Under the pieces are notes generated by a model. It did not search any database and was not told the origin of the DNA. It was given only the letters and a program-made list of their open reading frames with translations. The position numbers and the translations under genes were made by a program. Shown here in pieces: positions 5,451 through 63,157 of a stretch of 64,000 nt of DNA. How positions within the stretch are numbered: the stretch's first letter is position 1; the number at the start of each line of letters is the position of its first letter. Source of the stretch: a virus (taxonomy: Duplodnaviria > Heunggongvirae > Uroviricota > Caudoviricetes); the IMG/VR virus record IMGVR_UViG_3300031565_000009, one strand, 5' to 3'.

Positions 5451-6013
5451 TTCAATCCCGTTAGATGTAGGAGACCGGCCGACAAATAAGGGCGTGGCTC
5501 TTGACCCCAGGCAGCATTCCAGGGCCTTGGGAATCGCAGAACCTCCCCACCCGCTGCCTCAAACTTGCGGCAGTTTTTCTCGTTGTCGTCGATTAGAAGA
5601 GCGCCACGCTGGGCTAGCTTCCACTTCCGGGGCGTGATGAAGAATTGTCGGTGTATCCACTTAGGCAGATGGACATGAATCCACTCCAGCTTGCCAGCCA
5701 GACAGTCAGGGTCCTTCGTGGGACTGGTAGCAATGTAGATTTCACGACCAACAGCGCGTTTACACGCCTTCAGCAGCCAACAACATTCGGCGGACCTGGG
5801 TGTTTCCGCCCAGACCTGCCGTGAGATTGCCTGCCAGAAGGTAGTGCGCGTGTACTTTCGACCTAGCATCCGGTTTGCTGCCAGCACGATGTCCAGCCTG
5901 CCCGGGTAAGTGCTGTAGTCATCCGCCGCAATGGGAGCACCGAGATGTTGGAGGATGTACGGTGCGAGCGTATTGAGAACATCATCAAGATCGAGATAGA
6001 TAGTGTGAATCAT
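5441..6013 (-). CDS. HAD-family 5'(3')-deoxyribonucleotidase-like phosphatase
   Basis: N-terminal IYLDLDDVL is the DxDx(V/T) HAD motif I of the NT5C type. The Pnkp 3'-phosphatase domain is also HAD-type. Confidence 0.5.
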   Translation of the reverse strand: MIHTIYLDLDDVLNTLAPYILQHLGAPIAADDYSTYPGRLDIVLAANRMLGRKYTRTTFWQAISRQVWAETPRSAECCWLLKACKRAVGREIYIATSPTKDPDCLAGKLEWIHVHLPKWIHRQFFITPRKWKLAQRGALLIDDNEKNCRKFEAAGGEVLRFPRPWNAAWGQEPRPYLSAGLLHLTGLKNL

Positions 6014-6642
6014 CGAAGTTGACTCAGTTTCCTTTCCACTTGTTTCTGGAGTCGTTTAGAGAGGCGGTAAACACTGCGGAGAGAAATCCCCGTCTCGCAG
6101 GCGATCTCTTCGTTGCTGTATCCTTCTTTGCGCATTTCCACAAAACGCCTCTCTCGGTCATCCTTGCAACAGGACATCAGCAAGTCTTCAGCGTCGATCC
6201 AGTCGATTTCCTGGTTGCTTCTGCCAAGTTCAGCAAGTGCCTCCTGCTGCGGCAATTTGCGGTCGGTTCCACGGGTGCGGTAGTGGGTGAAACGCGAGTA
6301 GTAGACCATCACCTCGGAGTCAACTACTTGTCCGAAAGCGTTGTTGATGGCAGCTATCAAGTAGCCTGAAGGCTTCTCGATGGTTGAATCGCGACACAGG
6401 GCTTCAACAGCCTCGATAAGGCAGAGGAAGCCTTGACCAACAAGATCGTTACGTAGATAGGACAGCCTCGGGGTATTGCGAAGGAAGCATTCAACCTTCG
6501 ACAGTACGAGAGGCATGTTGCTTTCGATCAAAGTCCGCTTGGCTGCTTCATCGCCCAAGCAGGCTCGTTGATGTAAATAAGTGTTGGTATCAATGTCTGA
6601 TGGTTCAGTCATTTGCGATACAAGAAGACTGTTGTAGGCCAC
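6010..6642 (-). CDS. sigma-70 family (ECF/FliA-like) sigma factor
   Basis: DLVGQGFLCLIEAVEAL resembles region 2.2. SNEEIACETGISLRSVYRLSKR resembles the region-4 HTH. Confidence 0.5.
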   Translation of the reverse strand: MAYNSLLVSQMTEPSDIDTNTYLHQRACLGDEAAKRTLIESNMPLVLSKVECFLRNTPRLSYLRNDLVGQGFLCLIEAVEALCRDSTIEKPSGYLIAAINNAFGQVVDSEVMVYYSRFTHYRTRGTDRKLPQQEALAELGRSNQEIDWIDAEDLLMSCCKDDRERRFVEMRKEGYSNEEIACETGISLRSVYRLSKRLQKQVERKLSQLR

Positions 6643-11402: not shown

Positions 11403-12208
11403 TCCATATCAGCGGTCAATTCCTCATTCGTGATATGACCGGCACACCATGCCCCCACCCTTGTTGGGAGGCCCGTGATGCCCAATTCCAACATCTTGGA
11501 GACCATCTGATTGATCTCCTCGCGGTTCCGCACGCGGTTGATCCGCTTGGCCGACTTCTGAAAGGGGCGAAAGCCTTTTCGCCGCCCCGGCTTCCGCTCT
11601 CGGTGAGACCGCACTAACTCCTCGGCAGCCCTGATCTGGGCTTCCTTGCCCTCTTCGATACGATCCAGAATCTCGATGTCCGCCCGCCGCAGCAGGCCGG
11701 CGGCCACCATCGTTTGGATTTCTTCCGGCAGTTGCAGGAGGCGAAGCCGTATGTAGGCCCAATAGTAGGGCCGCTGCAACTCGGTCTTGACCTTTATGAT
11801 GGAGGCCCCTTCCGGGAAGAGGCGCTGAATCGCACGAGCCTCTTCGAGAATGTTCAGGTCTTTCCTCTCCAGATTCTCCAGGAAGTTCAGCTTGTGTGCT
11901 TCCCAGTCAGAGAGATTGGCACGAATGTTGGCTGGAATGGTTTCCCAATCCAGGAAGGTCATAATCGCCTTGAAACGGCGATGGCCCGCAAGAAGCCGGT
12001 ATTCATAGTCCGGCCGCTGGTCCCACGGCTGAACGATCACCGGGTACGCGAGGCCATCCTTCCCAATGCTGTCGGCCAGTTCCTTCACGCTATCCAGAGT
12101 AAAGGCGCTACGACAGTTGAAGTCTGGGTCGTAGTAGATCAGGCTTGAATGGATGGCGAACGTGTCGTACTGCTCAAGACGTTCCATGAAGGCCCTCCAA
12201 GCGATCAA
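11375..12208 (-). CDS. ParB-like nuclease domain protein
   Basis: YRLLAGHRRFKAIM is a ParB/Srx N-terminal domain motif. Confidence 0.5.
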   Translation of the reverse strand: MIAWRAFMERLEQYDTFAIHSSLIYYDPDFNCRSAFTLDSVKELADSIGKDGLAYPVIVQPWDQRPDYEYRLLAGHRRFKAIMTFLDWETIPANIRANLSDWEAHKLNFLENLERKDLNILEEARAIQRLFPEGASIIKVKTELQRPYYWAYIRLRLLQLPEEIQTMVAAGLLRRADIEILDRIEEGKEAQIRAAEELVRSHRERKPGRRKGFRPFQKSAKRINRVRNREEINQMVSKMLELGITGLPTRVGAWCAGHITNEELTADMEKVTHPAAN

Positions 12209-12467
12209 GGATCAGCTTGCCGAAATCAGCAAGGAAGCTGCCGGCGCAGCCACAGGCGAACAGCACGAACAGGTTGACACTGACCAGAACCAGACCCAGC
12301 GCCACGCCGCACCAGAAGCCGCAACACTGATAGCACTCAAACAGGCCATGATGCAGCTTCGCGGGCAGTCGATTCTTGGCCCACTCGTCCACGGAGTCCA
12401 TGATCTCAGAGTCCACCATGATATGAGTCATGCCGACGACACCGAGAATAAAGAGGATCAGATTCAT
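12174..12467 (-). CDS. small membrane protein
   Basis: Hydrophobic ORF. The likely start is MNLILFILGVV, abutting the metallophosphoesterase stop. Confidence 0.25.
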   Translation of the reverse strand: MNLILFILGVVGMTHIMVDSEIMDSVDEWAKNRLPAKLHHGLFECYQCCGFWCGVALGLVLVSVNLFVLFACGCAGSFLADFGKLILDRLEGLHGTS

Positions 12468-13462
12468 ATCGGTAGCCTCGTCATATTGGAAACCGCACAG
12501 CCATTGATCCAATCGAAGACCCCAACCGCCCCCTGAGCGGGCTCGATGCAAAAAAAGCTGTTGACTCGCTCGGCCCAGGTGCCTGTGTTGTAAAGCCGGA
12601 GACCGACATGCCCCGCACGATGCGTGTGACCTGAGACAATGAAGTAGCCGGGATAAAGAGATGCGAGCCGGCGATTCATGGTTTTGAAGCGATCCGCCCG
12701 ACCCAGAAGTCGATAGACGACACTCAACACCCGCTCCATGCGGCCCACAACAGCCTCTTCAACCATTTGGTACTTATTGACCCACGGCGAGCCGTTTCGG
12801 TCTTCCCAGATGCCCGAATAGATGGCCGAGATGCGGCCCTTGCCCGGCGTGTCGCTGGCACAGTACGGGTCGGCTTGGTGGCCGTGGATGAACTTGAATC
12901 TCTGACCGCCGATGATCTCCTCGTGCTCCATCACCATCCGGTCGAAGAAGGTGTGGCGGAACATAGTGCTGTTGCAGAAATAAAGCAGGTCGGCGTCATG
13001 GTTGCCCAAGACATAGCGGACTCCCATTTCGGCCAGCCGGTCCAGGAGCCAAAGGTGCTTCATAATCACCTTGCTCACGTTGGCCTGCCAAAACTCGAAC
13101 AGGTCGCCCAAGATAATCAGGCGGCCCTTCTGCTCCTCCACGTAGTCGAGAAAGGCCAGAAATTGTTTCATCTTGTCGCCGACCGCAAAGTTGTCTCGCG
13201 GCCCGCCATCGCCAAGATGCAGGTCGCTCACGCAGTAGATCGGGCACCGGCTCCCTCGCGGCTCGGTCCATTTCTTCTCTGGCTTCGTGGCGAAGGTGGC
13301 TGCCTGCGGGCACGAGAGATGATCTATCATGACACTAAGGTCTCCAGGATGACGATCGAAATCAAACCATTCGCAGCACGCCACACGAAGCGAGCGCTTT
13401 ACAACATCAAGGTCTGTGTCTTCGGGCATGGCTTTGAGAAGCATGGTAACTTGCAGGTCCAT
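12464..13462 (-). CDS. calcineurin-like metallophosphoesterase
   Basis: Motifs VSDLHLGDGG, LGDLFEFW, GNHD and GHTH. Confidence 0.65.
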   Translation of the reverse strand: MDLQVTMLLKAMPEDTDLDVVKRSLRVACCEWFDFDRHPGDLSVMIDHLSCPQAATFATKPEKKWTEPRGSRCPIYCVSDLHLGDGGPRDNFAVGDKMKQFLAFLDYVEEQKGRLIILGDLFEFWQANVSKVIMKHLWLLDRLAEMGVRYVLGNHDADLLYFCNSTMFRHTFFDRMVMEHEEIIGGQRFKFIHGHQADPYCASDTPGKGRISAIYSGIWEDRNGSPWVNKYQMVEEAVVGRMERVLSVVYRLLGRADRFKTMNRRLASLYPGYFIVSGHTHRAGHVGLRLYNTGTWAERVNSFFCIEPAQGAVGVFDWINGCAVSNMTRLPI

Positions 13463-13721: not shown

Positions 13722-14033
<312 letters not shown>

Positions 14034-18560: not shown

Positions 18561-19634
18561 TCAGGTGGTATGAAGAACACGGAAGGGGCGCACGATCTCC
18601 CCCATGTCGCTTTCAGCCGGAATCTGCGCAGGCAGTGGGATGCCGATACTGGGACTCGGCCCTTCGATGCGGGGCTCTTCATCGCCCGGCTCTTCGGGCA
18701 CTACGATAGGCTCTTCATCGCCCGGCTCTTCGGGCACTACGATAGGCTCTTCATCGCCCGGCTCTTCGGGCACTACGATAGGCTCTTCATCGCCCGGCTC
18801 TTCGGGCACTACGATAGGCTCTTCATCGCCTGGACCAATGGAGATGATGATCTGCATCGGGTTTTGGTAGTCCGTCGCCGTGCCATCATCCACAGGCAGT
18901 TTGGCTCGCGCTTCCTCATTCGGCATGGAAACACTTAGGTCCAAAGCCCACAAGACGCCCATCTTCTTAGCCCAAGGGATAATCCGTCGCATGGGAATGA
19001 TGAAGTTCAGTCCAGGACCAACGCCACGGGTCAACAGACCGATGCACTCATGTGTCTCGTCGAGGTAGACACCGCCGCCGGATGATCCGGGATAGCCCAT
19101 GCAGCTTGTCTGGTCGAAGACCTTGCCCATAATGTCCCGTTCGGTCTGTGACAGAACGCCAAAACTCAGCGAATCATAGAGGCCCATAGTGCAGCCGACG
19201 TGAACCAGCTTCACGCCGATTTCAGGGATTTCGTCCTTCAAGTAGAACTTCGCCGAACGAATGACAGGTGCCCAATTGTCCTGCAAAATCTCCAACAGCG
19301 CCAGGTCTTCGCCGCTGTCCGGGGCGCTGTAGGCAATCACCTTGGCCTCAATCCGGCCGGAGCCAATCAGGCGGCCTTTGTCGCGATACTCGAAATAGAT
19401 GATCGAATTGTCGAACTTGCCGTCGTGACGAAGCGATTCGACAACATGCCCGGCCGTCCAGACAAAGGTGCGGGTCCGCTCGCCGTCGGCGCGTGTCACC
19501 AGCACACCGGTGCCACAGCCACGGCCGATCTCCACGCGCACACTCACACTCAGCAGATCATCGTACTTGCCCGCAAGGGCGTCCGACGCCAGTACCAACA
19601 CGGCAACTAGCGAGAAAATCAGTGCTCGAATCAC
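18561..19634 (-). CDS. secreted trypsin-like (S1) serine protease with C-terminal acidic Pro-rich repeats
   Basis: Signal peptide MIRALIFSLVAVLVLASDALA. TAGHVV supplies His and GYPGSSGGGVY the Ser motif. PGDEEPIVVPEE is repeated five times. Confidence 0.55.
   Translation of the reverse strand: MIRALIFSLVAVLVLASDALAGKYDDLLSVSVRVEIGRGCGTGVLVTRADGERTRTFVWTAGHVVESLRHDGKFDNSIIYFEYRDKGRLIGSGRIEAKVIAYSAPDSGEDLALLEILQDNWAPVIRSAKFYLKDEIPEIGVKLVHVGCTMGLYDSLSFGVLSQTERDIMGKVFDQTSCMGYPGSSGGGVYLDETHECIGLLTRGVGPGLNFIIPMRRIIPWAKKMGVLWALDLSVSMPNEEARAKLPVDDGTATDYQNPMQIIISIGPGDEEPIVVPEEPGDEEPIVVPEEPGDEEPIVVPEEPGDEEPIVVPEEPGDEEPRIEGPSPSIGIPLPAQIPAESDMGEIVRPFRVLHTT
18675..18840. repeat. 36-bp tandem repeat, ~4.6 copies
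   Basis: ctcttcatcgcccggctcttcgggcactacgatagg iterated. It encodes the PGDEEPIVVPEE repeat. Confidence 0.85.
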
Positions 19635-21888: not shown

Positions 21889-22119
21889 TCAGATCACGCC
21901 GAACAGCTTCAAGAGTCCGAGAATCACGCCGCCGATCACACTGACTGTCAGGGCCGTGACGACCAAACCGATGACGAGATTGACGAGAAGAATCTTCCAG
22001 TAGGTCCGTTTGACGTGGTGCATCACCTTGCCGAAGTGATCGGCAGCATTGGTGGCCCCATCAAACGAGACACGAAGAGACTCAAAGGATTCAAGCAGGT
22101 CTTTACCAGTGCGGTTCAT
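21889..22119 (-). CDS. small tail-anchored membrane protein
   Basis: C-terminal TM segment LLVNLVIGLVVTALTVSVIGGVILGLL. Confidence 0.3.
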   Translation of the reverse strand: MNRTGKDLLESFESLRVSFDGATNAADHFGKVMHHVKRTYWKILLVNLVIGLVVTALTVSVIGGVILGLLKLFGVI

Positions 22120-47466: not shown

Positions 47467-47826
47467 TTACTCTTTCGCACAATCCCCATCCCGCGGGCTG
47501 TTAGCTTTATGAGACCACCGTTGGTCCATCGCATATTCCAGCCGGCGCATGATAAGGCTGTTCTTCGCAACGACTTTCATGCACTTGGCCACCAGGGGCA
47601 GTAACACCTTACGTTGTCCATCCTCCAGCTTGCTGATGCGGGCCAGCAGATGTTTCTCCCGGACCCAGCCCTGCCAAAGGAAGAACGCCACAATCAGGAC
47701 AAGCGGCCCGTACTGTCGCAACAGAATCAACACGTCAGTGAAATCCAGCATGGTATGCCTCCATTCATAACGGGCGGTGATAGAGAAGATCGCCCACCGG
47801 GGATTGCTCCCCGGTGGGCAGATCAT
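47467..47826 (-). CDS. small membrane-spanning protein
   Basis: Probable start MLDFTDVLILLRQYGPLVLIVAFFLWQGW. One TM segment. Confidence 0.2.
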   Translation of the reverse strand: MICPPGSNPRWAIFSITARYEWRHTMLDFTDVLILLRQYGPLVLIVAFFLWQGWVREKHLLARISKLEDGQRKVLLPLVAKCMKVVAKNSLIMRRLEYAMDQRWSHKANSPRDGDCAKE

Positions 47827-53923: not shown

Positions 53924-55591
53924 TCAGAGGAACTTGCTGATGTTCTCGCCAGTGGTCATGGACGCTGCCAGAGGTAGAGCCATTTCCGCGTAAGTAAGCG
54001 AGTGGGCGTAGTGGTCGGGTCCCGTTGCCACGTAGACCATCTTGTAGTTACCCTTGTCGTCCTTCTCAAAGGTCCGCACAAGGTTCTTCAGATGTTCGCG
54101 GTACTCCAACGAGATGTCGCGCGGCAACTGAATGCGAGGCGGCTTCGCCTTAAAACGCCCCAGAGAGCATGACAGCCAATTGGTGCGATCCACCTGGGCA
54201 ATCGGAGCGTTATCCTGCTCCTCGATGGACATTTCCTTTGCAGTCTGGCCACGGCGATACCGGGTCAACCAGACGTAGCCCCAGAAACGACGAGCGAAGC
54301 GGCGAGCCTCATTGATGTTCGGGTCAGCATCGACGACGCAGGCGAGAACCTGCCACTCACGCATCAACTCGTCAAGGTATTTCCAGTCTTCCTCGCCAAA
54401 ACGGCCAAACCAAAGCACCTTCCCCCGCGCCACCGCATTGATGTCGCGGTCCATACGATCCAGCGACCACTCCGCCACCGTAATGTAGCCAACCTTACCC
54501 TGGTCCACACCCATCGTTATCAGCTTCTCGCGACCGATTGCGGGTCGAGGATCGTTGATAGTGTAATTGCTGACAGCGGCATCAATCATGTCATCCGTGA
54601 TCTGAGCGTGGTCGCCGAGAAAGGGGAGACCCAACTTTGAATTATGAAACTCTTTATTGGCCGCCTCGTCTCCCAGGCCGCGATGGTAGGACACGACCAA
54701 TTCAGCAGGCGAGACCGTGTAGGAGTACATCTGGCTGATATGAAGGCCGCGAATAACTGGATTCGCCTGCTCGTTCATCACTTTCCAGATGGCACTGCTT
54801 AGCCACTCGGGCTTCGCCGCGTGCTCCAGTCGGCCCTGGCATTCCTTGCACTTCAGGAACGACTCGCTGCATCGCGGGTCCAAGACCGTTTCACCGATGA
54901 TCTCGATGCAGTCCGGCCAAACCAGTTCTGTCCACCGACCGCAGCGTGGGCACTTGAAAACAAAGTGCTCCTGGGTCGAGGTGAGGAACAGCTTATGGAT
55001 TCCATAATTCGGAATCGTCGGCGTCGAAATGGCCCAGACATGCTTTTCTAACTGGCCACTGAGTCGTTCCAACGCCAGCCAGATTTGTTTCTGATCCATC
55101 TCGTCCACCTCGTCCAGGATCAGGTCCGAGACGGGAATGGACTTCAAGTTGCTATCACCGCGCGAGCCACGAATGTAGAGCGAGTTGGCCGCCGTCCGCT
55201 TCAAGTTGACCGTATCAGTGTCCTTGAAGATCAATTTCAGATAAGGACTCAAGTTGAGGGCCGCATTGAAGCGGGCCTTACTGAAGTCGCCAGCATTCAG
55301 TGCGGTTGGCAGCACGTAGAGCACGTCACGTCGCAGCCAGTCGAGCACATACAGCGCCCGATTGATCGCCACCTCGGTCACGCCCAACTGTGCGCCCTTC
55401 ATCACGTAGTTGAAGAGCGCATTCGAGTCCAGAATGTCCTTGACCCAGGGGTGATACTTCCAACCATACGAACCTGGAAACGGCTGCCCCATGATGCGCC
55501 GCTTCGCTGACCACCGCGAACAACTGGTCAGCGTTCGAGTCTGGCCACTGTCACAAACCGACGTGACAAATGCGTCGTTTAGCTGGTTCAT
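53924..55591 (-). CDS. terminase large subunit
   Basis: ATPase N-terminus. LILDEVDEMD is Walker B. A Zn ribbon CPRCGRW precedes the C-terminal nuclease region GVDQGKVGYITVAEW. Confidence 0.7.
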   Translation of the reverse strand: MNQLNDAFVTSVCDSGQTRTLTSCSRWSAKRRIMGQPFPGSYGWKYHPWVKDILDSNALFNYVMKGAQLGVTEVAINRALYVLDWLRRDVLYVLPTALNAGDFSKARFNAALNLSPYLKLIFKDTDTVNLKRTAANSLYIRGSRGDSNLKSIPVSDLILDEVDEMDQKQIWLALERLSGQLEKHVWAISTPTIPNYGIHKLFLTSTQEHFVFKCPRCGRWTELVWPDCIEIIGETVLDPRCSESFLKCKECQGRLEHAAKPEWLSSAIWKVMNEQANPVIRGLHISQMYSYTVSPAELVVSYHRGLGDEAANKEFHNSKLGLPFLGDHAQITDDMIDAAVSNYTINDPRPAIGREKLITMGVDQGKVGYITVAEWSLDRMDRDINAVARGKVLWFGRFGEEDWKYLDELMREWQVLACVVDADPNINEARRFARRFWGYVWLTRYRRGQTAKEMSIEEQDNAPIAQVDRTNWLSCSLGRFKAKPPRIQLPRDISLEYREHLKNLVRTFEKDDKGNYKMVYVATGPDHYAHSLTYAEMALPLAASMTTGENISKFL

Positions 55592-55615: not shown

Positions 55616-56104
55616 CTAGCCCTTGGGGTACTTGCGGCGCATCGGATACTTCGGCTTCACGGCGGGCTCCGGCTTCACGGCGGGCTCCAGTTCCACGGTG
55701 GGCTCCGGCTCGGCGGCGGGCTCCGGCTCGGCGGCGGGCTCCGGCTCGGCGGCGGGCTCCGGCTCGGCGGCGGGCTCCGGCTCGGCGGCGGGCTCCGGCT
55801 CGGCGGCGGGCTCCGGCTCGGCGGTGGGCTCCGGCTCGGCGGCGGGCTCCGGCTCGCGGATCACAATCGGCTGCATGTGTGGGTCCACCTGTCCGCTACA
55901 AAAGCAGAACTCGGCATACACCCCGCAGTGCCGTTCCTCGACACCCTCGGGAAGCCTCACGTTGTACTGCCGAAGGGTGTCATCGCAAGTTACGTTGACA
56001 GGCCCCTTGGGCGTTTCCACCGTGAGTCGGACAAGGGGATGATTGCTACTTTGGGGAACCGGCACTAGCATGGATTCGTTCCTCTCGTATTTGAATGATC
56101 TCAC
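55616..56104 (-). CDS. Pro/Glu repeat protein upstream of TerL (possible TerS-position protein)
   Basis: (PEPAAE)n run of ~13 units. Confidence 0.35.
   Translation of the reverse strand: MRSFKYERNESMLVPVPQSSNHPLVRLTVETPKGPVNVTCDDTLRQYNVRLPEGVEERHCGVYAEFCFCSGQVDPHMQPIVIREPEPAAEPEPTAEPEPAAEPEPAAEPEPAAEPEPAAEPEPAAEPEPAAEPEPTVELEPAVKPEPAVKPKYPMRRKYPKG
55660..55860. repeat. 18-bp tandem repeat, ~10 copies
   Basis: gcgggctccggctcggcg iterated. Confidence 0.85.
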
Positions 56105-56345
56105 CCAACCGGGTATGCAGGCGCTTCAGCTTCGGAAGCACATCACCCGGCACGTCCATTGCCACATACCCGCCCAACATCCCAGTCGTGATGCCGGCTG
56201 CGTAGATGGCGTACTGCCACAACTTCTCGGCCTCGACACCAAACGAGGGCAGCGTGGCAGGCTGCGGTTGCAGTTGCGGTAGCGGCAACCCGTCTTTCGT
56301 CTCCGGGCAATTCCGGCATCGTCGCGGGTTGCGGGTTGCCATACG

Positions 56346-56813
56346 TTACCTCTGTCGAATACGTTCCAGAACGTCGTTCGCCTGGTTCGTCCGCAACAAT
56401 GGCTGTTGGCACTCGAAGTAGATATAGGTCGGAACGGCAGTCACACTGTACCGCCGGATTGCCGTTGGATTCGCGTCGATGTCGATCCGTATCACGCGCA
56501 CTCCGGCGGCCTCGATCTGGTCCACAAGCGGTGCCTGCCGGTGACAGGGACCGCACCAGGAAGCCGTAAAGGCGATCATCACCGGCTTCTGATTCGGACA
56601 GCACTTGGGCGGCGCTGGTGACGATGGCGGCATCGGTTGACAGCCGGCCAGGAGACCCAGACAAAGGGCAGCCAGACAAAAGAGCCTTCGTGTCATGTTG
56701 TCATTCCTCGTGGTATTCGGTTCTCCAATCGCTCGCGCCGCGCGGAAACGATTGGAGAACCGGCCCCAAGCGCGTACGACCGCGACCGGGACCGGGGCTC
56801 GGTGATCTAGCAA
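56346..56813 (-). CDS. thioredoxin-family lipoprotein
   Basis: Lipobox LLAGC. IAFTASWCGPCHRQAP carries the WCGPC active site. Confidence 0.6.
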   Translation of the reverse strand: MLDHRAPVPVAVVRAWGRFSNRFRAARAIGEPNTTRNDNMTRRLFCLAALCLGLLAGCQPMPPSSPAPPKCCPNQKPVMIAFTASWCGPCHRQAPLVDQIEAAGVRVIRIDIDANPTAIRRYSVTAVPTYIYFECQQPLLRTNQANDVLERIRQR

Positions 56814-56831
56814 TGCTGTTGTCAGAGGGGC

Positions 56832-57254
56832 TTACGCCTTGACAGCAACCGCCGGGGCGGGAGCCGACTGGACGGAACTGGGATCAGTCGGCTTCGTGGC
56901 ATCGGTCAGCTTGGCAGCGATCAGGGCTCGGCCGGATTCACACGTCAGCTTCGCGGCCAAGACCTTCTCGAAAACGGTGTCAAACTCGGCAATCACACTC
57001 TGCTCGCCAGACAGGAACAAGTCGGCAAGGCTTTTCATCTTCTCGGCCATGCCGCTGTAGTCCCCGACGCTGTAGTCGATCAGGAAAGCGGGAATCTTCG
57101 AGAGACCATACGCCGTCAAGGCGGCGGCCAGCTTTGCAGCGCCGCGCCGACGATCCTCGACCACGGTGTCCTTCTGGAAGAGCCACTTCGCGGACAACCA
57201 GGCGAGCACGGCGACCAGAGCGAGCACGATGACCTGCAAGAGGGAAACGACCAT
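56832..57254 (-). CDS. N-terminal-TM membrane protein (holin-candidate position)
   Basis: N-terminus MVVSLLQVIVLALVAVLAWLSAKWLF forms a TM segment. Confidence 0.3.
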   Translation of the reverse strand: MVVSLLQVIVLALVAVLAWLSAKWLFQKDTVVEDRRRGAAKLAAALTAYGLSKIPAFLIDYSVGDYSGMAEKMKSLADLFLSGEQSVIAEFDTVFEKVLAAKLTCESGRALIAAKLTDATKPTDPSSVQSAPAPAVAVKA

Positions 57255-57327
57255 TGCTGTACCTCACTATTGGAGAAGGTTTGTTCAGAACGATTGCCAC
57301 AACAACGTGGCGGGAATCAGGGATGGG

Positions 57328-58008
57328 TTACTTCTGCTTGTAAGTCTCACGCCACTTCTGCACAACACCCACGAAGCCTCCGGCCAACATGCCCAGAAGC
57401 ATGGCCCACCACGCGGGTAGGAGCGACTGAGCGGGAGAGATGTTGGGCGGCCCGGGGTCCGGGTTGATCGGCTGAGGCGGGGGATCAGGGTTCGGGTTCG
57501 GATCAGGAGTCGGGCCGGGACTGGGGCAGAGGCGACTTTCCATCCGTCGCCGCCACGGCAGAAGCGGCCGGCAGCCCTGAGCAGTCTGAACGTCGGCGGC
57601 AATCGCAGCATAAAGGGCGTCCGGCGACATAGGAATCTGGAGAGCCGATGCCTCGTAGACCACGACGCCTTTGCCATCCTGCACGCGGACGGTCGGCAAC
57701 CCTTTGATATTAGAGGCGTACCGCTCGCTAAAGATCGCCGTATTCGTTCGGATCGAACAGAAGTGGACCTGATCCTTCAGATGCTTCAGATTGGGATTCG
57801 TCTCGAACCAGCCGAGCACTTCCTGGTATCTCTGGTTGGTGACATCGCCGACAACAGAGATGTACCACTTATTCTGGTCCTGGGGAAAGTTGACCACGCG
57901 CTCTTCGACGAGCACGCCGTTGACAACATCCTGCGTGGCAAAGGTCGGAGCGACAAGCCCGACAAGCATTACCAACGCAAGACACAAACACAGCACGGAA
58001 CGATTCAT
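57328..58008 (-). CDS. secreted protein with Pro-rich linker and C-terminal TM anchor
   Basis: Signal peptide ending ...VAPTFA. C-terminal region PGPTPDPNPNPDPPPQPINPDPGPP is followed by a TM segment. Confidence 0.35.
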   Translation of the reverse strand: MNRSVLCLCLALVMLVGLVAPTFATQDVVNGVLVEERVVNFPQDQNKWYISVVGDVTNQRYQEVLGWFETNPNLKHLKDQVHFCSIRTNTAIFSERYASNIKGLPTVRVQDGKGVVVYEASALQIPMSPDALYAAIAADVQTAQGCRPLLPWRRRMESRLCPSPGPTPDPNPNPDPPPQPINPDPGPPNISPAQSLLPAWWAMLLGMLAGGFVGVVQKWRETYKQK

Positions 58009-58051
58009 CTGCTTACCTCGCTTGTAAAGAAGATGGTGACTTGTTTCGCAA

Positions 58052-58636
58052 CTACTGAGGCAGAGGGGCCGCCGGAGTGTAGATCGGCGTCAGCGCCCAA
58101 CCGTAAGATGCCTTCCACTCGGCAATCAAAGTCTCACGCGGAACCCAGATGTAGTTGGACGTTGCATTGTTATCAAGAAGAGCAGCCCACTTGTCGTCCA
58201 GGTGAACGAGGCAGACCATGTGTTTGCCGCCCATGACAGTGATGGCAGCGCCTCTCCGTGTGCGACAGGCCCATTCCAGAAAGGAGACATCTCCGCCCGT
58301 CGTGAGGGCGTATCGGAGTCCAATCTTCTCAGCCAACTGCATCCAGTGTTCGGGCCGCTCGCCGTTACCGTAATTCTGTCGAATCCAGTTGGCCGTGACG
58401 TAGCGCCCCTGCCACCGCAGGAGCGAGATGGTCGAGGCCCAAACGCAGGACGCTTCGCCTTTGTTGCCGATCCAATTCTTTTGCCGCAGGACTTCGGGAA
58501 GATTGACCGTGGGGCGCTCCTCGTTGACCACGGGCGCAAGATGTGGGGGATCGAATGGATTCAAATCAATCCGAAACTTGAGATCACAGCCGGTGCAGCA
58601 AAGCAAAAGCACCAACACGAAGAGTAATCGCTTCAT
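58052..58636 (-). CDS. lipoprotein papain-like (CHAP/C39-like) peptidase
   Basis: Lipobox LLCCTGC. GEASCVWAS supplies a candidate Cys and HMVCLVHLDD a candidate His/Asp. Confidence 0.4.
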   Translation of the reverse strand: MKRLLFVLVLLLCCTGCDLKFRIDLNPFDPPHLAPVVNEERPTVNLPEVLRQKNWIGNKGEASCVWASTISLLRWQGRYVTANWIRQNYGNGERPEHWMQLAEKIGLRYALTTGGDVSFLEWACRTRRGAAITVMGGKHMVCLVHLDDKWAALLDNNATSNYIWVPRETLIAEWKASYGWALTPIYTPAAPLPQ

Positions 58637-59229
58637 TTGAGTCTCCGGGCTTTGCCAAGGATGCCATCACCTCGAAGATGACGGGCCAGCCTATTCGGAT
58701 TCCAGCGGCTCACATTGTCCATTGGATGCAATCCGACGTAGGTGTAGGCGGCAGCAATCCATTCGCTGCAAAAGATGGTCGTTAGGTTTTGTTCGCGAAA
58801 AAGTGATTCGATCCAGGAGAAGCCGACCCCGGCGCTACGAAACGCGCCCATCTCGTCGTAAGGCGTCCCGATGGTGCCCATCAGAAACTCGATGAAGCGT
58901 TCATCCTCCCAAGCGTAAAGCGGTCGGTAAAGCGGATAGTGCCAAACAGCACCATGATACAATTTGATGATTCGTTCGAGGTGATGGGCTTGAGTCCCGG
59001 CGATGGGCTTGCCAGTAATCTCACAGGGATGGTTGCCATCAAGGGTCGTGGATTCAAAAATCAGCAGGCGCTTGTCCGGCGTGTTCGCCATCACGCCGAC
59101 GTGGCTCAAGTCCCACAGTGGAATGCCATAGGTGGCAATGTTGACGCCAGCGCTGATCCAGTTGTAACCGCTGAAGCCGATGATGTCGCCAGCTTTAATC
59201 ACGCTGGAATCAAGGTATTTCTTGGCCAT
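58633..59229 (-). CDS. permuted papain-fold (NlpC/P60 or C92-like) peptidase, endolysin candidate
   Basis: His in SHVGVM precedes Cys in IFCSEWIAAAY. Confidence 0.35.
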   Translation of the reverse strand: MAKKYLDSSVIKAGDIIGFSGYNWISAGVNIATYGIPLWDLSHVGVMANTPDKRLLIFESTTLDGNHPCEITGKPIAGTQAHHLERIIKLYHGAVWHYPLYRPLYAWEDERFIEFLMGTIGTPYDEMGAFRSAGVGFSWIESLFREQNLTTIFCSEWIAAAYTYVGLHPMDNVSRWNPNRLARHLRGDGILGKARRLK

Positions 59230-59479
59230 GACTCCCCCCAGCCTTGCGGCTCTTCTCCCGAACCGGCACGACAGGACGGATCAACTCAAAGTAGGGCCTA
59301 TGCCCCATACAGCCGTAACGCTCTTGATCCCGCGCCCAGCAATCCTCACAGCGAGTTTCACAGGGGTCACGAATGATGCGGCCGCACGCGCAGAATCGTG
59401 GTATATTCACACGCGCCTCAATCAGGAGAAAGCGGCTCTCGCCATCACAAGACTGCCACAGCAAGGACTGTTCCTGCAC
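59210..59479 (-). CDS. small Zn-finger protein
   Basis: CACGRIIRDPCETRCEDCW. Confidence 0.25.
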   Translation of the reverse strand: MQEQSLLWQSCDGESRFLLIEARVNIPRFCACGRIIRDPCETRCEDCWARDQERYGCMGHRPYFELIRPVVPVREKSRKAGGSHGQEIP

Positions 59480-59492
59480 GATGGCAGATCAG

Positions 59493-60125
59493 CTACAGGG
59501 GCGGCCCGGACAGAAGTTTCATGCCCCGAGCAGGCTCTTCATTCTGAGCGCTCTTGGCGCAGACAAGGAAGCGATGGAATATCTCGTCTGCCACCATCTC
59601 ATAACGCTCAATGCCCTCTTCTTTCAGCACCTCGATAACGATTTCGCCCAATTGATTGGCTAGACGGATGGCCGTCTCTTTTGACATGAGCAAACCGAGG
59701 TTTTGTTCAAGAACATGGGCCGACTTGACGAGCCGTTCAACAGTCAGAAGAAGCTGGTTCAGTGGGGCACAGGAAGCCAGCATGTCGTTCTTGCCCTCGA
59801 TGCTGTTCAGCCTCTCCTCGATCAGCATCCGGGTGATAGCAATCTCGTCCCGAAGCGACTTCACTTTTTCGTGGTCACTCAACGCGGCCAGACGTTGGCG
59901 GTATTCGGCTTTCGTGAGGAGGTACTGCCGGCGCTCACGTTGTAGACTCTGATCCACCCCGCCGCAGGCAGCGCAATACTCAGACCCGGACTCCGCATAA
60001 TTGCTGCACTGCCCGTCGCGGGCATTGCCCTTGCAGCGTCGGGGATCAGCCGGATCATCAACTTGCTTCATCGCGCACCCTAATGCCAAAGAGACAACTC
60101 CTCCTCTATCTATAAGGATGAGCAA
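59493..60125 (-). CDS. first late-operon protein (N-terminal Zn ribbon plus helical C-terminus)
   Basis: CKGNARDGQCSNYAESGSEYCAACGG. The likely start is a TTG near 60089 or the ATG at 60071, downstream of the GAGGAGGAG SD. Confidence 0.3.
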   Translation of the reverse strand: MLILIDRGGVVSLALGCAMKQVDDPADPRRCKGNARDGQCSNYAESGSEYCAACGGVDQSLQRERRQYLLTKAEYRQRLAALSDHEKVKSLRDEIAITRMLIEERLNSIEGKNDMLASCAPLNQLLLTVERLVKSAHVLEQNLGLLMSKETAIRLANQLGEIVIEVLKEEGIERYEMVADEIFHRFLVCAKSAQNEEPARGMKLLSGPPL

Positions 60126-62437: not shown

Positions 62438-62750
62438 AGACCGCTTTCAGCATGGGATTCAGGATCGTCTGGGAATCATCATGGTGCCAGACGTAGTTGA
62501 ACAAACGCGGACGCCTCCTACCTGTACGCAAAACCTCAATATACTGATTCACGCCAGGCTGTGTGGGGACAAACTGCCGCCGCCTCTGCACCGGCGTCAG
62601 CAGACGGCTATCGAAGCCGAAGCCGCGCACGGTGTCCGAGTCGATACCCTGATCCTGGGCCTTCACCCACAGGTCCAAGACCGCAAGCAAATAGGCCCGC
62701 TCTTTCTCGCAAGCCGTAATCCGGTCAATCACTTCTTGTACAGTGCTCAC
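62421..62750 (-). CDS. hypothetical protein
   Basis: 109-aa ORF. Confidence 0.2.
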   Translation of the reverse strand: MSTVQEVIDRITACEKERAYLLAVLDLWVKAQDQGIDSDTVRGFGFDSRLLTPVQRRRQFVPTQPGVNQYIEVLRTGRRRPRLFNYVWHHDDSQTILNPMLKAVYEHDE

Positions 62751-63157
62751 GTTCCCTCTTTCCGCATGACGGTGATGCCGCGAACCACAGAATCGCGAAG
62801 GAAAAACGGCTCACCCCAGTGGAGGGCACGGAACGGAATCGAAGCGGTCGCCGTCATAGGTGTTCCCGCCGGCGCTCTCGGGTCCAGCGGCTTCAACGAT
62901 ACCTGGATCGGCAAACCCTCGACGCCCATCTTCTTGAACAAGTCGCCCATGTACTTCTGGAAACTGGCCGGGGTAGTCCCCTCGGCCGCCGCCGCCCGAG
63001 CGGCATCGCGCGAGATGTTGGTCATCATCTGCGTCACGCGGATGTAGCCGCCGTACTCGATCATGCCCAGCAGCAGAAAGAAGAACAACGGGGCAACAAG
63101 GGCAAATTCCACAGCCGCTACACCATGCCGATCAGTTCGTTTCATGCAAATAGCCAT
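62747..63157 (-). CDS. TadE/TadG-like Flp-pilus assembly protein
   Basis: GVAAVEFALVAPLFFFLLLGMIEYG is the classic TadE N-terminal domain. Confidence 0.55.
   Translation of the reverse strand: MAICMKRTDRHGVAAVEFALVAPLFFFLLLGMIEYGGYIRVTQMMTNISRDAARAAAAEGTTPASFQKYMGDLFKKMGVEGLPIQVSLKPLDPRAPAGTPMTATASIPFRALHWGEPFFLRDSVVRGITVMRKEGT

Follow-up and report, generated by a model that had tools for sequence, protein, structure and literature searches.

A tightly packed run of minus-strand genes occupies 55.6-60.1 kb of a 64,000-nucleotide stretch of tailed-phage DNA (IMG/VR record IMGVR_UViG_3300031565_000009; the whole stretch is called the window here) and ends in the gene for a gpA-type large terminase (TerL). 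Five open reading frames (ORFs) of this run, A to E, all on the minus strand within 56346-59229 (Table 1), may constitute a co-transcribed, late-expressed module for lysis or envelope breaching in uncultured tailed phages and prophages of Planctomycetota; judged from sequence and predicted structure, the probability of this reading is about 0.5. It is the most economical reading of the block for three reasons: the block is universal in its lineage, packed with late genes and portable between two classical lysis positions; a holin-like gene adjoins it in one group of relatives; and it contains hydrolase folds like those of wall-degrading enzymes, seen nowhere else in the genome. In addition, three of the five proteins carry export signals and so cannot be virion parts. 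Each part belongs to a fold family already known; the novelty lies in how they are combined and in the exported thioredoxin, and the literature searched holds no description of this five-gene module.

The composition of the block was established in 92 distinct loci bearing B, each searched with a hidden Markov model (HMM) of each family; counts refer to loci whose flanks were long enough. A was found in 68/68 loci, C in 89/89, D in 88/89 and E in 77/89, and F, which follows E, is found in 60/89. Packing in the window is close: the stop codon of A overlaps the start of B by 4 nucleotides (ATGA); gaps of 43, 73 and 135 nucleotides separate B from C, C from D and D from E; and E and F are 3 nucleotides apart. 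Downstream of TerL, and in the same operon direction, lie the portal, scaffold, major head, adaptor, tail and tape-measure genes.

Two genomic contexts are seen. In group 1, which comprises the window and most loci, the order is a ~200-residue gene, a Zn-ribbon-like ORF, A-B-C-D-E, optional F and G, TerL and portal. In group 2 (L070, L128, L133, L136, L138, L139, L141, L143 and L170-172) no gpA-type TerL is nearby. Here the block is preceded by a tail-fibre-like gene, three unknown genes and the gene for a 1400-1640-residue protein; it is followed by a conserved gene for a 91-108-residue protein with two transmembrane (TM) segments and a charged C-terminal helix, and later by a tyrosine integrase gene. 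The two-TM protein (L133:2620-2895, L143:8521-8829, L128:8215-8541, L070:1968-2243) is holin-like, and its family has no homologue in the window; one group 1 relative, L067, has a two-TM ORF of 85 residues between A and B. In both contexts the block is co-oriented with the virion genes and E keeps the slot directly after D.

An earlier annotation made from the letters of the DNA (the first-pass annotation) had placed a putative lysis cassette between a late promoter and TerL. The five genes, their order and the features ascribed to them are all as it described. The list itself was incomplete, since F and G also lie between E and TerL, and the promoter was not borne out: a sigma-70 scan gave no site upstream of A and no excess over shuffled sequence. 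The cassette as such gains from its portability, its co-orientation with virion genes and its wall-hydrolase folds, and loses from the lack of an identifiable holin in the window. The phage encodes a sigma factor of the extracytoplasmic function (ECF) type (6010-6642, minus strand; weak Sigma70_ECF and Sigma70_r4_2 matches). This factor could drive late transcription, which would account for the failure to see a sigma-70-like late promoter.

The annotation of A as a permuted papain-fold peptidase agrees with both alignment and fold comparison. In an alignment of 21 homologues, His43, Glu59/Ser60 and Cys154 (within FCSE) are invariant. The modelled structure appears to be a circularly permuted papain fold, with the putative catalytic His N-terminal to the Cys. 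It matches YiiX (YiiX/YaeF, MEROPS C92; PDB 2if6, 3kw0) and the type VI secretion effector TseH of Vibrio cholerae (6v98, deposited as a cysteine hydrolase), at 9-21% identity. TseH has been described as a wall-degrading effector. For the YiiX class we know of no established substrate, and a lipid-directed activity has been proposed. The Pfam C92 model (PF05708) is not reached by A itself, and 2 of the 21 homologues approach it weakly (E ~0.016, below threshold). A hydropathy scan of the window found no export signal in A. Residues 22-40 were considered as a signal-anchor-release (SAR) domain and rejected, this stretch being the standard YiiX-fold helix between the GD strand and the His strand. 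A cos site, suggested by contig ends 45 nucleotides upstream of A, was likewise rejected: the ends coincide with the start codon of a 203-residue version of A, which points to provirus trimming at a gene boundary.

B is predicted to be a lipoprotein with a papain-like peptidase domain, as first annotated (CHAP/C39-like). Its signal peptide, like that of E, ends in [LVI][ASTVI][GAS]C, the pattern taken to define a lipobox, and the lipobox Gly-Cys is invariant in an alignment of 25 sequences. So are Cys64 (in GSCxWA), His139 and Asp155, which in the model would form a papain-like Cys...His...Asp triad. The fold matches C39-like peptidases and the pseudomurein endoisopeptidase PeiR at 9-20% identity. 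Compared with the C39-like peptidases and the prophage enzymes PeiW, PeiP and PeiR, B differs in being a lipoprotein, in matching neither Pfam C39 nor C71 and in having no wall-binding repeats. Its viral structural neighbours are mostly annotated as lysozyme, endolysin, peptidase or tail-associated hydrolase; these similarities are weak, with TM-scores of 0.38-0.46 and one E value below 1e-3. Neither B nor its 25 homologues match any Pfam family, and B has no match in PHROGs or NCBIfam. Single-sequence and profile searches of the PDB sequences returned no match for A, B or C.

One homologue of B is named after a double-glycine peptidase domain in the Joint Genome Institute annotation. Together with the C39 fold match, this name would suit a quite different arrangement, in which B and the thioredoxin E mature a secreted disulfide-containing peptide or bacteriocin. 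That arrangement is very improbable: neither an ATP-binding cassette transporter gene nor a small gene for a peptide with a double-glycine leader was found in the neighbourhood; B is a free-standing lipoprotein without a Pfam C39 match; and the block is strictly linked to phage virion genes.

Between A and B, many relatives carry a free-standing HNH and AP2 homing endonuclease gene of ~160 residues (for example L019:2903-3391, L029:6999-7481, L055:1214-1702 and L071:239-727); a different insert of ~165-230 residues occupies the same spot in L061-L064 and L068. Homing endonucleases typically target highly conserved genes. A homing-type insertion similarly splits the spanin pair of the T5 family (PMC6139136).

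C has the three features first ascribed to it: a signal peptide, here of the cleavable signal peptidase I type; a Pro-rich linker of ~40 residues; and a C-terminal TM anchor, followed by a Lys/Arg-rich tail of 14 residues. Between signal peptide and linker lies a conserved domain of ~125 residues (motifs LPxD, WF, RYA, LPTVR and LPWRR). C is predicted to have its head in the periplasm, held by a stalk that is fixed in the inner membrane. A single-sequence search of a representative library recovered 543 clusters (50% identity), none of which departs from this architecture. No relative of known fold was found, and C has no match in Pfam, PDB, PHROGs or NCBIfam; single-member Pfam matches to Thioredoxin_7 and DUF6436 are at noise level. 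The idea that C is a degenerate thioredoxin fold is unsupported, as hhalign of C against E aligned the RY..LPT motif only, with a probability of 2%.

D was described at the outset as a small protein with an N-terminal TM segment, and this segment indeed starts at residue 1, ahead of a helical domain and a tail rich in Ala and Pro; there is no conserved Cys, and no match in Pfam, PHROGs or NCBIfam. One possibility, quite doubtful in our view, would be that D and E are the two components of a spanin: D the inner-membrane subunit (i-spanin), and E an outer-membrane subunit (o-spanin) whose thioredoxin fold catalyses intermolecular disulfide formation or isomerisation. As in lambda Rz/Rz1 and T4 PseT.3/PseT.2, a helical protein with an N-terminal TM segment precedes a Cys-containing lipoprotein, in the 'separated' architecture, and the lipoprotein follows D in 77/89 loci. 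D is without Cys and E has several; in the commonest spanin pattern the i-spanin has no Cys and the o-spanin does, and disulfides are near-universal (PMC6139136). In some E-less group 2 loci a short Cys-rich lipoprotein (~40 residues when mature, with CPDGRCP) takes the place of E after D. The lipobox region of E also gives a weak NCBIfam match to the P2 Rz1-like LysC, but this match covers the signal peptide only and is below the cut-off. Moreover, E is a folded thioredoxin domain of 80 residues, unlike known o-spanins, and seven E-less group 1 cassettes contain neither an Rz1-like lipoprotein embedded in D nor a lipoprotein ORF after it. The flanks of D point the same way. In 50/50 homologues there is no Lys or Arg before the TM segment and a Lys/Arg-rich flank on its C-terminal side; by the positive-inside rule, these charges predict an N-out/C-in orientation with a cytoplasmic C-terminal domain. 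This is opposite to the type II, N-in/C-out topology of an i-spanin, and argues against that role.

For E, the claim of a lipoprotein thioredoxin with an intact WCGPC motif is well founded. The protein matches Pfam PF00085 (Thioredoxin) at 4.9e-12, with 46.2 bits against a gathering cut-off of 23.5, and consists of a signal peptide ending in the lipobox LLAGC, a Pro-rich tether and a minimal thioredoxin fold with WCGPC and the cis-Pro loop (VPT). CxxC is kept in 53/53 homologues and the lipobox Cys in 92%. The long ORF of E begins at 56813; the gene call and the lipoprotein N-terminus begin at the ATG at 56696, which precedes MTRRLFCLAALCLGLLAGC and is served by the ribosome-binding site GAGGAA. 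In the PDB its nearest sequences, at E ~1e-14, belong to classical thioredoxins, among them M. tuberculosis TrxC, whose I-P-T aligns with the V-P-T loop of E; TlpA, ResA and DsbE are further off. E is evidently a descendant of a thioredoxin of the classical cytoplasmic type. Two further Cys, the first preceding strand 1 and the second in the β4-β5 turn, occur in ~73% of homologues. These suggest a structural disulfide, as expected of an exported protein. In two relatives (L064:7503-9521 and L068:6720-8735) the lipoprotein-thioredoxin ORF runs in frame, without a stop, into gpA-type TerL. This could represent a fusion, an internal TerL start or recoding.

The analysis establishes gene order, folds, export signals, conserved catalytic residues, co-occurrence, both genomic contexts and the host phylum. 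Late expression, the substrates, how D sits in the membrane, whether E reduces or oxidises and the function in lysis itself are inferred, as is the scheme that follows. A, as a permuted NlpC/P60 amidase or endopeptidase, would be made in the cytoplasm and reach the wall after the cytoplasmic membrane is breached. B would be exported by Sec, lipidated and pre-positioned in the periplasm, where the putative active site Cys64/His139/Asp155 would cut links, peptide or protein, within the wall or within tethers of the outer membrane. C, stalked and anchored in the inner membrane, and D may together supply the membrane steps, in a holin-like and/or spanin-like manner. E would be an accessory, lipid-tethered thiol-disulfide oxidoreductase of the periplasm. 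Most probably it would manage the cysteines of the module, keeping the catalytic thiol of B reduced or isomerising disulfides; less probably it would reduce disulfide cross-links in Pro/Cys-rich envelope proteins of the host.

Several precedents bear on the task of E. DsbG protects the catalytic cysteines of periplasmic L,D-transpeptidases, and P1 Lyz is activated through disulfide isomerisation. DsbG and DsbC protect periplasmic catalytic cysteines more generally; keeping a periplasmic cysteine enzyme reduced is a plausible task for E as well. TlpA, ResA and CcmG are, like E, exported and membrane-tethered thioredoxin folds with W-C-x-x-C. E differs from them in being closest to classical thioredoxins, truncated at its N-terminus, phage-encoded and without a DsbD/CcdA partner in the module. 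Spanins in general depend on disulfide chemistry in the periplasm (PMC6139136). Among the roles considered, care of the cysteines in the exported proteins of the module, as keeper or isomerase, ranks above both o-spanin and envelope reductase, which rank about equal. The first-pass annotation had favoured reduction of envelope disulfides as part of lysis; service to the exported peptidases, which it named second, is at least as likely. In its strong form, in which E is a reductive lysin that breaks the disulfides of a Pro/Cys-rich envelope while A and B cut peptide bonds (or, as a variant, a self-exchanging o-spanin with a thioredoxin fold), the proposal is attractive but improbable.

The search for other lysis genes covered ~84 kb, namely the window and ~10 kb on each side, using precomputed Pfam matches of called genes, PHROG scans of 20 further window proteins and a hydropathy scan of the window. 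No glycosidase, amidase, transglycosylase or muramidase, nor any further muralytic domain, was found in these ~84 kb, in line with the first-pass remark that no endolysin of glycosidase or amidase type could be recognised. Small membrane proteins do occur outside the cassette, at 12174-12551, 21889-22119 and 47467-47751 of the window and as PQ-loop and DUF2061 proteins outside it; none is near a hydrolase.

Several observations weigh against lysis as the function of the block, and the first five of them lower confidence in it. No holin homologue or typical small protein with multiple TM segments lies in or beside the cassette in the window, where the sole holin candidate is D, with its one TM segment. 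The predicted topology of D is ill-fitting for an i-spanin. Between the window and the prophage L004, A and B are 77% and 64% identical (C 53%, D 37%, E 44%, TerL 65%, portal 64%); conservation about equal to or above that of TerL is unusual for lysis genes. The YiiX class offers no established substrate. Pfam and PHROG profiles have low power in this lineage, so an unrecognised endolysin is possible, and the ~84 kb searched leave 3-9 kb of a genome of ~87-93 kb. Other points concern position and redox chemistry: distant homologues of A (phrog_1128) occur in unrelated settings, among head/tail or replication genes; cargo genes, too, are typically found beside an integrase gene; 12 of 89 cassettes (13%) are complete but for E; the Cys pattern of B is identical with and without E; and the module contains no gene for a thioredoxin reductase or DsbD/CcdA, when a periplasmic reductase needs an electron donor. 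A correlation between the presence of E and a CX5C pair in B was also looked for and rejected.

Some of these points suit a reading in which the whole block remodels the host envelope during infection or lysogeny, by superinfection exclusion, processing of a receptor or pilus, or wall hydrolysis related to entry. The high conservation, the use of both genomic positions by accessory genes too, the distant A-like genes in virion or replication modules and the presence in the phage of a TadE-like pseudopilin and an exported trypsin-like protease all favour it. Cargo genes, however, are rarely universal in a lineage, and A-D are in every complete locus; the genes of the block lie close together and run in the direction of the virion genes, in group 2 the block has a holin-like neighbour, and its exported proteins cannot be packaged in virions. 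None of 8 proteins matched the PADLOC defence-system profiles, which speaks against such remodelling and led us to reject the block as a defence system. Remodelling of the envelope is, on balance, unlikely.

A further alternative, tentative but deserving the more serious attention, divides the block: A-D would be a lysis or envelope module, and E a moron-like accessory insert with its own regulatory element, acting as a redox folding helper or as a gene of benefit to the lysogen. E is the sole sporadic member and is described as the least conserved and fastest evolving (28-60% identity); the dipeptide inside its CxxC varies freely (GP, AP, VP, QP, PA, SA, GA, RP, LP); and the constancy of the Cys pattern of B fits here too. 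An exported classical thioredoxin, moreover, reportedly acts as an oxidant in the E. coli periplasm (Debarbieux and Beckwith 1998). The position of E is the principal objection, as its occupation of the same slot after D in both contexts speaks for a functional tie to the module; E is also co-oriented with the next gene, 3 nucleotides away.

The regulatory element in question would be a two-hairpin structure exactly at the upstream border of E. RNAalifold supports 22 pairs, 8 of them with compensatory changes. The covariance model R1 scores 72.6 bits and finds a single copy in the window; there is no Rfam match. In ~38/84 related loci the element occurs once per locus, on the coding strand and directly after D (for example L011:3991-4088 and L025:10859-10954). 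None of the group 2 loci searched has it, nor does any searched E-less cassette except L160; that it is mostly absent where E is absent favours an insert. Against the insert reading, the hairpins lack a T-run and a promoter could not be recognised. The Shine-Dalgarno region of E is complementary to the 5' arm of the second hairpin as well, and the element may for this reason tune translation of E.

If the block is a lysis module, its closest counterpart in layout is the lambda cassette (S, R, Rz/Rz1), which likewise lies directly upstream of a terminase gene (here of gpA type), is co-oriented with virion genes, combines a cytoplasmic hydrolase with membrane proteins and a lipoprotein, and is portable between backbones. 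The differences are: two papain-type cysteine hydrolases in place of a glycosidase or amidase; no recognisable holin in the window; a lipoprotein bearing a thioredoxin; and the extra stalked protein C. The mycobacteriophage LysA/LysB systems likewise use more than one hydrolase, with papain-type peptidase domains, against an atypical envelope; their enzymes are unrelated in sequence to those described here and have no redox component.

The host phylum, judging by the genomic matches of A, is Planctomycetota: 11 of 11 close matches fall in metagenome-assembled genomes of this phylum (Thermoguttaceae, Pirellulales, Planctomycetaceae, Planctomycetia), and several lie inside contigs of 0.19-1.07 Mb, which indicates prophages. 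The same phage is found in several metagenomes, where its contigs reach 87-93 kb. More than 110 related loci in IMG/VR, both viral contigs and prophages, span several planctomycete orders. The closest TerL of an isolated phage shares 27% identity, and the lineage is therefore regarded as uncultured.

Almost nothing is known of how phages leave Planctomycetota, and the stress-bearing layer of the planctomycete envelope has been debated for decades, with disulfide-linked Pro/Cys-rich protein on one side and thin peptidoglycan on the other. Peptidoglycan was found in planctomycetes later than the protein layer was proposed. Envelopes that resist 10% sodium dodecyl sulfate and consist almost entirely of Pro/Cys-rich protein stabilised by disulfides are reported in PMC3035269, citing Liesack et al. 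1986. The guess in the first-pass annotation, which had no access to the origin of the DNA, of a host with a Cys-rich envelope fits that description. If the present reading is correct, a lysis kit in which two cysteine hydrolases act alongside an exported thioredoxin and no glycosidase takes part would lend itself to probing this envelope, and the substrates of A, B and E would reveal the bonds that keep it intact. The phage lysis proteins known so far would gain a redox component, and a phage member of the poorly understood YiiX class would receive its first assigned role; the kit would also provide enzymes with which to open the cells of planctomycetes, whose lysis is difficult. Were E a reductive lysin, phage exit would depend on redox chemistry instead of a muramidase.

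Table 1. Features of the A-E block and its flanks (window coordinates).
Feature	Coordinates	Strand	Description
~200-residue protein	59493-60089	-	Cys4-plus-helical protein upstream of A, same transcription direction
Zn-ribbon-like ORF	59210..59479	-	small, Cys-rich; upstream of A, overlaps A start
A	58633..59229	-	198 residues; predicted cytoplasmic permuted NlpC/P60 (YiiX/TseH-type) cysteine hydrolase, candidate endolysin
B	58052..58636	-	194 residues; predicted lipoprotein with C39-like papain-fold cysteine peptidase domain
C	57328..58008	-	226 residues; signal peptide, ~125-residue domain, Pro-rich linker, C-terminal TM segment
D	56832..57254	-	140 residues; single-pass membrane protein, candidate holin or i-spanin-like component
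Two-hairpin element	56702..56794	-	conserved, between D and E; ends at ribosome-binding site of E
E	56346..56696	-	116 residues; lipoprotein thioredoxin
F	56046..56342	-	98 residues; soluble, invariant RRCxNCP motif; outside conserved core
G	55616..56071	-	151 residues; variable, PEPAAE repeats; directly upstream of TerL
TerL	53924..55591	-	gpA-type large terminase; Pfam GpA_ATPase 1.2e-27, phrog_675 1.1e-90

The Zn-ribbon-like ORF is kept in ~28 related loci and is fused to A in the homologue P0050. F was considered as a holin and rejected, since its hydrophobic stretch is not conserved and the protein is instead a soluble one. Neither F nor the ~200-residue protein upstream of A matches Pfam, PHROGs or NCBIfam; both are candidates for the small terminase subunit. 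The PEPAAE repeats of G are encoded by an 18-nucleotide tandem repeat at 55660-55856 (10.9 copies, 93% matches).

Elsewhere, the phage encodes DNA polymerase A, a DUF5906 primase-helicase, ParB, SNF2, methylases and a ligase, in addition to the ECF sigma factor. The TadE-like pseudopilin (62747-63145, minus strand; Pfam PF07811) might interfere with or exploit host Tad pili. The trypsin-like serine protease (18561-19634, minus strand) matches Pfam Trypsin_2 and has an N-terminal hydrophobic segment; it is a candidate for a third exported protease of the phage, relevant to a proteinaceous envelope, and its gene contains 4.4 perfect copies of a 36-nucleotide repeat at 18673-18830. Finally, a 216-nucleotide tract at 13741-13956 has a strict 3-nucleotide periodicity (72 copies, consensus TCG) and reads as a poly-Val, poly-Thr or acidic low-complexity stretch, depending on strand and frame.

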